Shown here: positions 29,729 to 64,000 of the stretch, in pieces
Position numbering within the stretch: the stretch's first letter is position 1
How the letters are laid out: the number at the start of each line of letters is the position of its first letter
Virus record (IMG/VR): IMGVR_UViG_3300029913_000003
Coordinates: 128,001 to 192,000 of that record
Length of the DNA stretch: 64,000 bases
Origin: a virus
Direction: 5' to 3' (one strand)
The notes under the pieces: generated by a model
What the model saw: the letters and a program-made list of their open reading frames with translations, nothing else
The model's database searches: none
Told to the model about the DNA's origin: nothing
Program-made: the position numbers and the translations under genes

Positions 29729-30244
29729 TTAACTAAAACAAACAAGTCCATTATCTGATGCTACTCTAAATGCTTCTTTAAATTTAGAATAAATATCATA
29801 AAAATAATCTCCTTGACTAATTGCTACTTTATCAAATTCAACAAAATCTTCATATAGTTTTTTTGATATTTCAGGTCCTATAACGCCTTCACAATCACTG
29901 AATATTATAATTTCATAAAAAGATTTAGCTACATATTTTTCTCCTGAATTAATTTCATCTAATTTAATTTTTCTAATATTTGTATCAAAATCATTAAATA
30001 CATCTTGCATACTAATATATCCTAGCATTTCTAATAAATTCTTTCTCCAAACACCATAACCTGAACATGATCCAACATGAAAAGAGTCACTTTCAGATTC
30101 ATCTGTTTCATGATAACATTGACCATTTTTTAATGAACCTAATTGATATATGAAATATTTATGATTTTCAATATAATTATCGTCATCATCGTCATTACTT
30201 TCTGATATTTTAATTTTACTATAATATGATATATCTAAACCCAT
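29729..30244 (-). CDS. hypothetical acidic protein
   Basis: 171-aa ORF containing a DDDDD run. Confidence 0.45.
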   Translation of the reverse strand: MGLDISYYSKIKISESNDDDDDNYIENHKYFIYQLGSLKNGQCYHETDESESDSFHVGSCSGYGVWRKNLLEMLGYISMQDVFNDFDTNIRKIKLDEINSGEKYVAKSFYEIIIFSDCEGVIGPEISKKLYEDFVEFDKVAISQGDYFYDIYSKFKEAFRVASDNGLVCFS

Positions 30245-30249
30245 TTTTA

Positions 30250-30477
30250 TTATTTTTTAATATTTTTTAATTTTTCTTTTCTAACTAATTTAATTGGTAA
30301 ACAATTATTATATTTCAACATATCAGCTTCTTTTTTTCTTATTATTTCATCTTTTTCATACTTCAAAATAAGTTTTTTGTATTTATATAATACTTCACGT
30401 GATGGAGAATCGTTTCTCCAATCAATTGTATTACCATTATGAAATGAGGTAACTAAAATATAGTAATTTGTAGTATT
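30250..30477 (-). pseudogene. orphaned 3' fragment of a 32514..32960-family gene, cut off by the TnpB-like insertion
   Basis: Hand translation gives TSFHNGNTIDWRNDSPSREVLYKYKKLILKYEKDEIIRKKEADMLKYNNCLPIKLVRKEKLKNIKK*. This aligns to the C-terminus of the 148-aa protein, ...KFSNGRIMKW...EVYYKYKKLILNHEK...CLPIKLLRKQKLKNIKK*. There is no start codon. Confidence 0.6.
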
Positions 30478-32256
30478 TTATTAGATTTGTTGGGTAACAA
30501 TTCTAACTTTACTTTTACAATTTCCTAAGTGATAGTCTATTAACACATCATCTTTTAATAACATGTTCCGATACTTCAGTTGGTTGGTCTTTCTATATAA
30601 TTGAATCCAATTATCCTGTGTTGTGTTGATATTCTCACCAAGTAGATAAAACAATTTCTCTTGATTTATTAAATTCATACACGGGTATATAGAACTACCT
30701 TTTTTAAATTTATTCATCCCTCTACTGCCAATTTCAATGCTAGATGAAATTGGGTCAAAGAAGGTATGTATCATATTTCCGATAAAACTACTATAAGCAG
30801 CGTTTACCTCTATTTTATTTAAGCCATTTTCATTACAATATTTAGTAATCAAGTTGGTCGTTAAAGTTCGATGCCATAGATTTTTAGTTTGTTTATTTAA
30901 CTCTTTACCTACTGTATCTTTTGATTGTTTATCTTTAAAATCAAGATCTTCCATCACAAAATTATACACTCTGAAGTGCTTACACATCATGAATATTTGT
31001 TTCCAGACTTCTTTTATTTCATGTTTTCTTTTATCATTTTGTTTAACTTGTTTCTTGTCTGAAGAGCTTAAACTTAATTTCGTACTTAACTCAGATAAAA
31101 TAAAGCACTGAACATGAATTAATTTCTGCTCATCATTAATGTCATCAAATATACTTAAACCGATAAACTTTGGATTTAAATCAACCGCCATGTAACGATT
31201 TGATAGCTTACCTACTTTTTTTCTATCATTTTGTTCATTCTTATGCTTTATATAAATTTCCTTTTTACTTTCTTTGCTTAACGCAAGTAACTGTTCTTTC
31301 TTGCAGTCCAATTGATTGAATTCATAACCATTTAATAACTCTTCGTCATAAGATAAATGAATATATTCGTTTGATAATCTTATGGTCACTGGCATTAAAT
31401 TCAGGTTAGACATTTCTTGAATTTTAATTAATTTATTTTTTTGTTTTTTGCCGTTAGTTTTAAAAGTGATATCAATTTTAAAATCTCTTGATGGTTTGAA
31501 AGTGATTTTATTATTAATTAGATCGAAATCAATTTTTCTGTTACCTTTTTCACAGGCACGTCCGATTAAATAAATTCCTAATTTACGTTTTGATGTGAAC
31601 TCTAATTTCTTGAGCCCTAACCTTTCTATTAATTCTTTCTTATATTCAAGAAATTTCTTGTAATCTGTTGATTTAATATCAATCTTTGTTAGCTGTAGCT
31701 CAGTTTTATAAATATTTAAATGTAATTTCGTGATTTCACGTTGTAGTGCTTTACCACCAAATGTAATATTATTGTTTATATTTCGTTTAATTCTTGCTAG
31801 ATTATTTATTAAATTATATTTTTTACGTTTTTCCTTTTTTGTTTTGAATTCGTTATTATCAAGACATTTCTGAATATCAATTATCTTTTTTGATTTCTTT
31901 TCTTTGGTTGCTTCGTGCTGTTTAAGTTTTGTTTTCACATCAGAAATACAACAATCAAACATGGATTTGTCTAACACAGAATTATTTAATAGTGATTTTA
32001 TATAATCATCATCAATTAAATCAAAATGATTATAAAGAGTATAAAACAAACCAGTGTAGTCAGAACAATATTGATCTATTATCTCTGCTTGTAAGCACTC
32101 TTTTATTTTTAATTTAATAGTTAACATTTATTTAAATCGTTTATTTGGTAGAATCAAAATTTAATAGTATATTTGTACTATATAATAAAATTATTATATC
32201 AGTTTTTATCATAAAAGTTTATATATTATATTAAAACTGATAGCTATTAACTATGA
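30478..32256 (-). mobile_element. inserted element of about 1.8 kb carrying the TnpB-like gene, splitting a small paralog into 32251..32514 and 30250..30477
   Basis: Flanking ORF fragments align end to end with the intact neighbour 32514..32960. Boundaries are inferred from where that homology stops. Confidence 0.5.
30481..32127 (-). CDS. TnpB/Fanzor-like (OrfB_IS605 superfamily) RuvC-fold protein, possibly degenerate
   Basis: N-terminus MLTIKLKIKECLQ...LFYTLYN, RuvC-I-like RYMAVDLNPKFIGLSIFDD, RuvC-II-like FVMEDLDFKDKQ, and a VxPxYTS-like segment KIEVNAAYSSFIG. No CxxC zinc finger and no canonical RuvC-III were seen. Confidence 0.4.
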   Translation of the reverse strand: MLTIKLKIKECLQAEIIDQYCSDYTGLFYTLYNHFDLIDDDYIKSLLNNSVLDKSMFDCCISDVKTKLKQHEATKEKKSKKIIDIQKCLDNNEFKTKKEKRKKYNLINNLARIKRNINNNITFGGKALQREITKLHLNIYKTELQLTKIDIKSTDYKKFLEYKKELIERLGLKKLEFTSKRKLGIYLIGRACEKGNRKIDFDLINNKITFKPSRDFKIDITFKTNGKKQKNKLIKIQEMSNLNLMPVTIRLSNEYIHLSYDEELLNGYEFNQLDCKKEQLLALSKESKKEIYIKHKNEQNDRKKVGKLSNRYMAVDLNPKFIGLSIFDDINDEQKLIHVQCFILSELSTKLSLSSSDKKQVKQNDKRKHEIKEVWKQIFMMCKHFRVYNFVMEDLDFKDKQSKDTVGKELNKQTKNLWHRTLTTNLITKYCNENGLNKIEVNAAYSSFIGNMIHTFFDPISSSIEIGSRGMNKFKKGSSIYPCMNLINQEKLFYLLGENINTTQDNWIQLYRKTNQLKYRNMLLKDDVLIDYHLGNCKSKVRIVTQQI

Positions 32257-32514
32257 CATTTCACCTTTGCTCATCCATATATACCATCTATTATAATCTT
32301 TAACAGTAAAATGAATATTATCATCACAAATCAAAAATTTTAATATTGAATTATCATAAAATAATATTGTAGCATAATAATTATCTACATTAATAGATGA
32401 AATTTTAACATTTTCTAAATATACAAGTAAAATATCTAACAAAGGATAATAATCATATTTTATATGATTATGCCATAAAAACCCGTAATATATTTTTTTT
32501 AATAACTTATTCAT
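32251..32514 (-). pseudogene. N-terminal fragment of the gene disrupted by the insertion
   Basis: LDILLVYLENVKISSINVD...NRWYIWMSKGEMS aligns to LDILVVYLENVKIINIEII...SRWNAWMAYGTM of 32514..32960 and then stops. Confidence 0.5.
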
Positions 32515-32960
32515 TATTTTTTAATATTTTTTAATTTTTGTTTTCTAAGTAATTTAATAGGTAAGCAATCAGAAAAATCTTCAATTTCTACATTATCTAT
32601 TTTATGATTTTTAGATTTTTCATGATTTAGAATTAATTTTTTATATTTATAATAAACTTCACAAGATGGTTGTTTTTTATTCCATTTCATTATTCTTCCA
32701 TTACTAAATTTCATTGTTCCATAAGCCATCCAAGCATTCCATCTAGAATTCCAAAAAGTTAATACTGAATTATCAGAGAAAGTTATTACACAATTACCTA
32801 TTATAATTTCAATATTAATAATTTTAACATTTTCTAAATATACAACTAAAATATCTAATGCATGATAGGTATCATACAATTTCATAGGAGTATATAAAAA
32901 GTAATAAAAATTCTTAAATATTTTTAAAATATTTTTTATTATTTTATTTAACATATTCAT
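32514..32960 (-). CDS. intact member of the small family disrupted at 30250..32514
   Basis: 148-aa ORF. Its N and C halves match the two fragments flanking the TnpB-like element. Confidence 0.5.
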   Translation of the reverse strand: MNMLNKIIKNILKIFKNFYYFLYTPMKLYDTYHALDILVVYLENVKIINIEIIIGNCVITFSDNSVLTFWNSRWNAWMAYGTMKFSNGRIMKWNKKQPSCEVYYKYKKLILNHEKSKNHKIDNVEIEDFSDCLPIKLLRKQKLKNIKK

Positions 32961-63400: not shown

Positions 63401-63846
63401 ATTTTTAATTTTTTTATAAGTATAAAAGATTGATTTTTATTATCATCATAATCTTGATATATTTCAAATCCGCATTTTAAATATAAATTTACTGCTTTAT
63501 AATTATTTTTATAAACAAGTAAAGTAATAATATTAATTTTAAGTTCATTTTTAACATAATTAAATATCTGTTCTAATAGATATTTAGCATACCCTTTTCC
63601 TTGAAAATTTTTAACCGTTTTTAAATCATGAATAGTTACATATTTTTCATTAAACCATTTATCTGGATGTTCTATTCTAAAACTAGATTCAGATACTAAA
63701 ATATCATCTAAAAACAACTTAAATTTATAATTCTTTTTATCAATTACAATTTTTTTTTCTGCTGTTATATACAAAAACAATAAAGTACAATTAAAAAGTA
63801 TACACTTTCCAATGGTTTCTTTTAGTATTTTTGCTAGAACAGTCAA
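63397..63846 (-). CDS. GNAT-family N-acetyltransferase
   Basis: Acetyl-CoA-binding motif NFQGKGYAKYLLEQ and the downstream ...KAVNLYLKCGFE. Confidence 0.65.
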   Translation of the reverse strand: MTVLAKILKETIGKCILFNCTLLFLYITAEKKIVIDKKNYKFKLFLDDILVSESSFRIEHPDKWFNEKYVTIHDLKTVKNFQGKGYAKYLLEQIFNYVKNELKINIITLLVYKNNYKAVNLYLKCGFEIYQDYDDNKNQSFILIKKLKI

Positions 63847-63991
63847 CTGGCTTTATATCGGTTAGCTGCCAACGGTATATAATTCCCGCCTTTTTGAATA
63901 GTTTATAAAGGCTTACCCAGTTTTCACAATCTTTAACAACTGAAACATCAGGAAAAGAATTAATAAATCTTTCAACCACTGTGTTCAGCAT
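63791..63991 (-). CDS. small ORF in a locally GC-richer segment, possibly a transposase or foreign-gene remnant
   Basis: 66-aa ORF. The base composition at 63840-64000 is visibly more GC-rich than the rest of the window. Confidence 0.25.
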   Translation of the reverse strand: MLNTVVERFINSFPDVSVVKDCENWVSLYKLFKKAGIIYRWQLTDIKPVDCSSKNTKRNHWKVYTF

Positions 63992-64000
63992 TGTACTTGT

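Follow-up and report, generated by a model that had tools for sequence, protein, structure and literature searches.

IS607 elements have neither inverted ends nor a target duplication, and they move through a circular double-stranded intermediate (10.1101/2023.11.20.567912; PMC13565253). A core dinucleotide is common to the target and to the right tip of the element, and the target motif is also the target-adjacent motif (TAM) of the nuclease TnpB (10.1101/2023.11.20.567912; PMC13565253). The omega RNA of these elements carries a guide of ~18 nt that reaches beyond the right end, and TnpB drives what is called 'restorative homing' (10.1101/2023.11.20.567912; PMC13565253). In typical IS607 elements, the core is GG and the TAMs are G-rich (PMC13565253). 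Here, we describe a tnpB-like element in 64,000 nucleotides of viral DNA (positions 128,001 to 192,000 of IMG/VR record IMGVR_UViG_3300029913_000003; this whole stretch is called the window, and its coordinates are used throughout). A first-pass annotation, made from the sequence alone, had noted at 30250–32514 a TnpB/Fanzor-like element splitting a gene. The element is most probably a non-autonomous derivative of the IS607 family that keeps only tnpB and the element ends and has lost tnpA, because its relatives are partnered with IS607 tnpA and the window has no tnpA.

The closest characterized TnpBs belong to the CboIStron/IS607 elements of Clostridium, to ISFba1 and to other elements with a RAGATH-18 right-end element RNA (reRNA). 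Their serine-recombinase partner is matched in the relatives of the window element. Like them, the window element has no terminal inverted repeats or target duplication and has a short core common to its left flank and right tip; it would also produce a 3′-end guide RNA running into the flank, and restorative homing is expected (10.1101/2023.11.20.567912; PMC11061315). It is thus a known kind of mobile element with three departures: no zinc finger, a CA/GTCA target in place of GG, and the failure of standard protein and RNA libraries to detect it. Whereas the characterized IS607 elements end in GG and have the TAMs TGGG and AGGAG (PMC13565253), the window element has GTCA and a CA core. Their TnpBs have a C4 zinc finger and are recognized by Pfam, and the window TnpB has neither property; the window RNA is not RAGATH-18 or another Rfam family.

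The borders of the element are known to the base from an empty site. The two halves of the interrupted gene were joined into a 151-aa protein that served as a protein query. This query found P0263 (151 aa), which is 99% identical to the reconstructed gene across 100% of its length and is encoded on two short European Nucleotide Archive (ENA) metagenome contigs, L006 and L007, from different samples. Both contigs lack the 1.8 kb; elsewhere, their identity to the window is 99.4% on the upstream side of the break and 97.8% on the downstream side. With a slash at each junction, the empty allele reads ...GGTGAAATGTCAT/TTCATAATGG... and the window allele reads ...GAAATGTCAT/AGTTAATAGC...(1805 nt)...TTTTAGTTACCTCAT/TTCATAATGG..., so the junctions differ from the empty site by the insert alone. 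This is a presence/absence insertion polymorphism between near-identical strains. The insert length is 1809 bp, and the junctions are ambiguous by 4 nt (TCAT), since the empty allele has a single TCA(T) and the window has one at each junction. Comparisons within the family settle the ambiguity: the element runs from 32253 (T) to 30445 (A) and entered directly 3′ of GTCA. No terminal inverted repeats were among the repeats found in the element, and there is no real target duplication. The element has a GC content of 25.6% vs 19–20% in its flanks. The first-pass annotation had described a precisely delimited insertion of roughly 1.8 kb, and L006 and L007 now fix its exact breakpoints. In IMG/VR, an exact-pattern search for the empty junction gave no match and no relative of the interrupted gene was found; a blastn search with the locus among 50,697 phage records also gave no match. 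L006 diverges from the window a second time just downstream of the element (L006:1460-1793 vs window 29729..30244). After ~15 bases of the next gene, it has unrelated sequence and an opposite-strand 72-aa open reading frame (ORF) that replaces the window's 171-aa gene, so the element adjoins a second strain-variable spot.

The gene order on the minus strand is an intact 148-aa gene, an 87-aa ORF, a 548-aa ORF and an ORF-less stretch at 30250..30477 (Table 1). The 87-aa ORF (32251..32514) is the N-terminal fragment of the interrupted gene, and its stop codon TAG (32251-32253) consists of the first three bases of the element. No ORF was called in 30250..30477, and its translation ends ...SFHNGNTIDW...LKNIKK before a stop codon. 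The earlier claim that the two flanks are colinear with the N- and C-terminal halves of the intact neighbor holds: the N fragment aligns to residues 3–83 of this paralog (score 144.5 vs 41 ± 8 for shuffles, maximum 70.5) and the C fragment to residues 84–148 (172 vs 38 ± 7, maximum 77). The two alignments meet exactly, with scores 13–19 standard deviations over shuffles. L006 and L007 also have an ortholog of the paralog, P0270, and it lies upstream of their uninterrupted gene. Judged by its sequence, the paralog is not a target of the element's guide, because TGAAA replaces TGTCA at the equivalent site and only 14 of 20 bases match the candidate guide. In the tandem pair (30250..32514 and 32514..32960), stop and start codons overlap (ATAATGA), and no domain is detectable. 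The host gene family consists of proteins of 137–157 aa (P0265-P0270 among them) that occur only in related metagenomic contigs, with eight database hits.

Table 1. Features of the element and of the interrupted gene (window coordinates).
Feature	Coordinates	Strand	Basis
Inserted element, 1809 bp, 5′-TAGTTAATAGC...TTTTAGTTACCTCA-3′	30445..32253	-	absent from L006/L007; family-wide end motifs
tnpB-like gene, 548 aa, zinc-finger-less RuvC nuclease with putative catalytic triad	30481..32127	-	alignment, predicted structure
Putative triad codons	D316 31180-31182; E393 30949-30951; D458 30754-30756	-	
Candidate omega-RNA (guide RNA) scaffold	30445..30588	-	covariance model R2
Right-end terminal motif TTTTAGTTACCTCA; family consensus TTTTGTTATCT[CT]A	30445..30458	-	family alignment
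Right flank TTTCATAATGGTAATACAAT, would be transcribed as guide; equals the target in element-free genomes	30425..30444	-	position inferred from TnpB/IS607 architecture
Non-coding left end, 126 nt, begins TAGTTAATAGCT	32128..32253	-	sequence
Perfect 10-bp inverted repeat TATCAGTTTT ... AAAACTGATA, 26-nt loop	32233-32242 / 32197-32206	-	sequence
GTCA, insertion target and candidate TAM	32254..32257	-	present in empty allele; conserved in subclade
5′ part of interrupted gene, 87 codons (MNKLL...KGEMS)	32254..32514	-	alignment, empty allele
3′ part of interrupted gene (FHNGNTIDW...LKNIKK-stop), without its own start codon	30250..30444	-	translation, alignment, empty allele
Intact tandem paralog, 148 aa, function unassigned	32514..32960	-	ORF list, alignment

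The first-pass annotation described the 548-aa ORF correctly, and the motifs AVDLNPKFIGLSI, VMEDLDFK and VNAAYSS are all found in it. The protein belongs to a large family, with 215 matches in a word-indexed search and 768 cluster representatives (50% identity) in an exhaustive search. Some homologues carry the Joint Genome Institute (JGI) label 'IS605 OrfB family transposase'. D316 (in AVDLNP), E393 (in VMEDL) and D458 (in FDPISSSIEIGSRG) are invariant in 83 homologues, relative to which the ORF is full length; S447, G450, N451, R469 and others are further invariant residues in alignments of 24 and 83 members. The absence of a canonical RuvC-III, as first reported, is not upheld, since the equivalent of this motif is the invariant D458. 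The absence of a zinc finger was read correctly: no member has a cysteine pair between YSSFIGN and D458. By these alignments, zinc-finger loss is a trait of the whole family and not decay of the window copy.

The assignment to TnpB comes from predicted structure and from one sequence link. AlphaFold2 with the 83-sequence alignment gave a model with a predicted local distance difference test (pLDDT) score of 91.4 and a predicted template modeling (pTM) score of 0.83. In this model, D316 ends the strand 308–317, E393 ends the strand 387–393 and D458 opens the helix 458–472, so that the three residues occupy, in the prediction, the RuvC-triad positions of an RNase H fold. The RuvC domain with its D...E...D triad lies inside a bilobed WED/REC architecture, which is a hallmark of TnpB and Cas12. 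The predicted structure matches Cas12f and TnpB, and the model identifies the protein as a TnpB/Cas12-type nuclease because plain RuvC resolvases align over ~115–135 residues only. The TnpB similarity proposed in the first-pass annotation therefore stands by structure comparison and by the sequence link to the ISCaje4 TnpB (see below), and fails for profile searches of Pfam, NCBIfam and PDB. Compared with the TnpB of ISDra2 and with Cas12f (an OMEGA and a type V-F nuclease, respectively), to which no sequence similarity is detectable, the window TnpB lacks the zinc-ribbon (TNB) insert between RuvC-II and RuvC-III. It also has a C-terminal extension of 75–90 residues after RuvC-III and longer REC helices (548 aa vs ~400).

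Loss of the zinc finger has been reported in some large TnpB branches (PMC10691335), so a zinc finger is common in TnpBs and not obligatory. In the major TnpB clade RIIIr-4 (Altae-Tran et al. 2023), the C4 zinc finger is missing, viruses are over-represented, associated small proteins are ribbon-helix-helix (RHH)/MazE-like and the RuvC-III aspartate is replaced by histidine (PMC10691335). The window family shares the missing zinc finger, the phage context and, in some homologues, small RelB/RepB-like ORFs upstream. Unlike RIIIr-4, with its exchange of aspartate for histidine, it has the invariant D458, four residues after a variable H/Y position (H454). The lineage probably corresponds to RIIIr-4, to which it is likened by the description of the clade only, and the aspartate-to-histidine exchange does not obviously fit D458.

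The relatives tie the element to IS607. About 100 family loci were taken from IMG/VR, GTDB genomes and metagenomes, and the transposase search among them was aimed at serine recombinases only. With an IS607 TnpA query, tblastn found 28 matches directly upstream of a homologue. Two of these upstream genes were checked (L036 and L009); they match NCBIfam NF033518 with 191 and 180 bits (cut-off 110) and also Pfam Resolvase (PF00239) and helix-turn-helix (HTH) models. Other loci have no transposase and only ~125–135 nt upstream of tnpB, as in the window. Where one metagenome-assembled genome (MAG) or contig holds several relatives, their similarity is limited to a span from ~130 nt before the ATG through ~25–35 nt after the stop codon. 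By sequence, this span defines compact elements of 1.7–1.8 kb with the same architecture as that in the window. Relatives occur in MAGs of Bacteroidota, Cytophagales and Chlamydiota and in phages of Campylobacter and Prevotella (Lak phages).

Some loci show other arrangements. Two Bacteroidota MAGs hold three copies each (L022, L023, L024 and L025, L026, L027), with 81–90% mutual identity and different flanks; the family is thus multi-copy also in cellular genomes, unless these copies lie on phage contigs that were binned into the MAGs. On the 216-kb contig L039, the tnpB homologue is followed immediately downstream by a second, diverged IS607 tnpA-like gene (L039:3037-3558; 37% identity to the query), which suggests adjacent or nested IS607 elements. 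At L034:~1340-1500, L083:~1350-1500 and L064:~1290-1500, an ORF of 48–68 aa takes the place of tnpA directly upstream of tnpB. Two of these three small ORFs have RelB-antitoxin/RepB (RHH) matches just under the Pfam cut-offs (E 2e-4 to 8e-4), and they resemble the Arc/RHH proteins reported with TnpB elements.

The nearest annotated relative is ISCaje4 of Campylobacter phage CP220, a resolvase-like tnpA plus tnpB. In a tblastn search of phage records, its annotated 'ISCaje4 transposase TnpB' matches the 548-aa protein, as do several Lak megaphages, with more than one copy in a genome, and further huge uncultured phages. The two TnpBs are 33% identical over the WED/RuvC core (E 4e-30) and both lack the zinc finger; they have in common the motifs IDLNP..IG, ..EDL.. 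and YSSFIGN...D....SIEIGRRG. The ISCaje4 TnpB carries a TIGR01766 note. ISCaje4 is also like the window element in its residence, a large virulent phage, and in its 3′ region, which the RNA model described below matches at 24 bits. It differs in keeping a short resolvase-like tnpA, which precedes tnpB in CP220, in the length of its TnpB (465 aa) and in its annotated borders, which lack the GTCA/...TCTCA junctions of the window element. In the ISCaje4 locus (L008, NC_027997.1 128167-129880), the best RNA-model match ends at L008:4094 (...AAAATCTTA), which falls short of the annotated tnpB stop by 25 nt and of the annotated right border by 76 nt. Neither a GTCR flank nor a ...TCT[CT]A tip is present at the GenBank borders, and their deposited positions may be imprecise.

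The element ends carry the motifs on which targeting would depend. GTCA belongs to the target, since it is present in the empty allele, and the element itself starts with the T that follows, a conserved base. Of 10 loci in the window's subclade, 8 have exactly one GTC[AG] with a T after it, 87–125 nt upstream of the first gene of the element. The last two bases of GTCA, CA, recur at the right tip, and the tip's final base (A or G) agrees with the flank motif in L035, L036, L038 and the window. From these patterns, GTCA is a candidate TAM and CA a candidate recombination core. At the left end, the first 17 nt are identical to those of L069, and the motif AATAGCT is common to the window, L020, L024, L025 and L082. 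The motif at the right end is sharply bounded in an alignment of the 3′ regions of 72 family loci, with similarity ceasing abruptly after it in 42 of the 72; a more distant clade has TATGTATCTGA in its place. Past the right end, the flanking bases would be the guide, a position expected from TnpB/IS607 architecture (10.1101/2023.11.20.567912; PMC8612924). A search for guide-like off-targets with ≤4 mismatches allowed was swamped by AT-rich noise. A scan for sigma-70 promoters and terminators found 17 promoter-like sites vs 21.3 ± 4.5 in shuffles, and no terminator-like site.

The 3′ end of the tnpB ORF would double as RNA. In single-sequence folds of 35 right ends, a layout of three parts recurs: one hairpin surrounds the conserved L-R-Y-R codons, another falls in a stretch where the protein is variable, and a long composite helix has an outer stem that joins AGACAA to UUUGUU of the terminal motif and leaves the last six bases unpaired. 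RNAalifold found no pairs when 20 right ends were simply aligned with MAFFT, which left subgroups misaligned by a few columns; on 10 well-aligned members it found 32 pairs, 14 with compensatory changes. Models were built from this well-aligned 10-sequence subgroup, followed by covariance-model realignment. In a 397-kb search, the first model had 37 plus-strand matches and one weak minus-strand match, and the matches checked against located stop codons end at or just past the 3′ end of the homologue's ORF. In the alignment of the 24 best matches, whose fitting to the model inflates pairing, 90.4% of cells were paired vs 69% in shuffled and 41–51% in slid alignments, both partners change in 26 of the 32 pairs, and none of 500 shuffles reached any of these measures.

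The first model missed the window copy in the 397-kb search and gave only 9.3 bits locally. The realigned model R2 matches it end to end with 19.9 bits (E 0.008 for the element alone and 0.24 for the entire window); this match is the best within the element and terminates on the border base 30445. The scaffold overlaps the last 106 nt of the ORF and its stop codon, and then continues for 36 nt past the stop. In the outer stem of the window copy, GACUA (in AUAGACUAU, about 30533-30537) pairs with UAGUU of the terminal motif, whereas most relatives have GACAA/UUGUU. The change is compensated, which accounts for the odd TTTTAGTTA in the terminal motif of the window. An Rfam scan of 30100..32700 at E ≤ 10 found no credible family for this RNA. 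A covarying RNA that ends on the right border behaves as the scaffold of a guide (omega) RNA would, and is a candidate for it; the structured omega-RNA/reRNA-like region that the first-pass annotation had proposed looking for at the 3′ end of the ORF is thus present as a covarying family structure.

Several points weigh against reading the element as an IS607 derivative with a functional TnpB. The protein has no sequence match in Pfam, NCBIfam, PHROGs or PDB (the last also by phmmer and with a 24-sequence profile). The curated models (Pfam OrfB_IS605/HTH_OrfB/Zn_ribbon and the NCBIfam TnpB models) do not recognize it, and PF07282 matches one of 24 family members, at 0.05. With hhalign, an 83-sequence profile compared with E. 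coli IS609 InsQ gave a probability of 0.6%, an uninformative value given the single-sequence template. The CxxC pair of the zinc finger is absent between YSSFIGN and D458 in all 83 homologues. No tnpA is found in the element or anywhere in the 64-kb window, so any current mobility is hypothetical, and the polymorphism could stem from an insertion or from a precise excision. The GG core and the G-rich TAM of IS607 are absent, the core being CA (flank GTCA, tip CTCA), and the right ends of relatives are TCA, TTA, TCG or TGA. In L037, flank and tip are mismatched. The RNA score of the window copy is modest, its helix 1 is poorly formed, and the covariation alignment was fitted to its own model.

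The same observations could describe a decayed or domesticated TnpB that does not cut, either a TldR-like RNA-guided repressor or a relic, in which case the insert would be a dead passenger. The missing zinc finger, the lack of a Pfam or NCBIfam match, the lack of tnpA in the window and the presence of one copy only in the window would all fit such a protein, and the first-pass annotation had suggested that it may be inactivated or repurposed. The full-length ORF and the triad, invariant at the expected RNase H-fold positions, speak against that suggestion. Moreover, zinc-finger loss extends to copies that adjoin an intact IS607 tnpA, the polymorphism between ~99%-identical strains argues for recent mobility, multi-copy relatives exist, and zinc-finger-less clades with conserved rearranged sites are deemed probably active (PMC10691335). 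Decay or domestication is therefore unlikely.

An element of the IS200/IS605 type (IS1341-like) would travel as single-stranded DNA under the action of a Y1 HUH transposase, inserting 3′ of TCAT or GTCA and being recognized by its subterminal hairpins. Entry 3′ of a short specific motif without duplication, and a right end that closes with a similar motif, agree with this, as does the GenBank label of ISCaje4, 'IS200/IS605 family'. A perfect 10-bp inverted repeat in the left end also resembles a subterminal hairpin, but it is missing in L069, which has the closest left end, and its fold is no more stable than shuffles (z-score −0.8). The role of the repeat could lie in TnpA binding or in transcription signaling. 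The right end is a long multi-helix RNA-type fold and not a single subterminal DNA hairpin. The transposases beside homologues are IS607 serine recombinases, in a search for serine recombinases only, and the small tnpA of ISCaje4 is resolvase-like. IS200/IS605-style hairpins, another item for which the first-pass annotation had suggested a search, thus come down to one unconserved left-end hairpin, and an IS200/IS605 origin is quite improbable.

An insert in the same orientation inside a phage protein-coding gene might also be a self-splicing mobile intron, an IStron or a free-standing homing-endonuclease cassette, with the host gene expressed after RNA splicing; IStrons that join group I introns with IS607 tnpB are known (10.1101/2023.11.20.567912). 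This is very hard to reconcile with the locus, where the Rfam scan found no group I or II intron, the 126 nt upstream of tnpB are too short for the 5′ ribozyme core of IStrons and the first codon of the element is an in-frame TAG. The Fanzor affinity raised in the first-pass annotation, by which the virus would infect eukaryotes and its protein would be one of the TnpB homologues of eukaryotes or giant viruses, is the least credible reading of all, given that Cas12f and TnpB are better structural matches, that the context and all relatives are prokaryotic or phage (bacterial MAGs, bacteriophages and window genes that match PHROG phage families) and that E393 lies at the canonical strand-4 position and not beside a zinc finger as in Fanzors (PMC13565253).

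If the element is an IS607 derivative with a TnpB nuclease, a mechanism can be proposed from known TnpB and IS607 biology (PMC8612924; 10.1101/2023.11.20.567912). The 3′ end of the tnpB transcript would fold into a scaffold of ~145 nt ending ...UUACCUCA, followed by the flank UUUCAUAAUGG... as guide. TnpB, with its RuvC triad D316/E393/D458, would bind this scaffold, and the complex would recognize GTCA plus the guide-matching TTTCATAATGG..., a sequence present only where the element is missing or has been excised without a scar. The complex would cut at that site, for example, in genomes such as L006 and L007, and repair from an element-bearing sister copy or from a co-infecting phage would copy the element back, as restorative or true homing. 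To reach new sites, the element would depend on an IS607 TnpA provided in trans, with recombination at the CA core (GT-CA in the left flank, CT-CA at the right tip), and the element circle would carry the junction ...CCTCA-TAGTTAAT... RNA binding, TAM identity, cleavage and homing are all inferred here from that biology. Copies without tnpA could persist because homing between phages in co-infection would need no transposase.

The window element resembles the Seg and Mob homing endonucleases of T4-like phages in being a selfish nuclease gene that is polymorphic between close phages and would be expected to spread in co-infection by cutting the allele that lacks it (PMC13565253). Unlike Seg and Mob, which recognize their sites by protein alone, it would use a guide RNA plus a short motif, and it has defined transposon ends. 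As a tentative proposal, which we regard as possible but somewhat less than likely, the zinc-finger-less lineage may be an active RNA-guided nuclease with an A/T-compatible TAM of the GTCA type that spreads in AT-rich jumbo phages mainly without transposase, its C-terminal extension replacing the zinc ribbon. If this were true, the lineage would be the RNA-programmed counterpart to what free-standing homing endonucleases are in T4-like phages.

Current concepts are unchanged by this locus: the element is well documented, but its kind is known and the example is an ordinary one. Its value lies in a clean natural before-and-after pair for a TnpB element, with borders exact to the base and candidates for both the TAM (GTCA) and the guide. 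For annotation, it would mean that hundreds of 'hypothetical' proteins of 520–560 aa from phages and Bacteroidota are TnpBs. For genome-editing prospecting, the family offers a structurally distinct compact candidate nuclease with an AT-friendly target motif, and for phage biology the locus supports the view that tnpA-less TnpB elements may act as homing elements in phage populations.

The source of the window is a probable large AT-rich jumbo phage. The base composition is ~22% GC, several large ORFs match PHROG families, and the exact 548-aa protein is present on metagenomic contigs of up to 346 kb. Neighboring genes encode a thymidylate synthase, a Dam-type methyltransferase, helicases and an OmpA-domain protein, along with many small ORFs. 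A second TnpB element of the same family lies at 63765..64000 on the minus strand, cut by the right edge of the window, so that the phage carries at least two diverged copies. The ORF of this second element ends ...ENWVSLYKLFKKAGIIYRWQLTDIKPVDCSSKNTKRNHWKVYTF before its stop codon and is 50% identical to the C-terminus of the family member P0177 (E 1e-15). It is followed by the right-end-like TTGTTTTTGTATATAA, ending near 63765, and the RNA model R2 matches it at 63765..63894 with 25.3 bits (E 0.025), better than the copy studied here.

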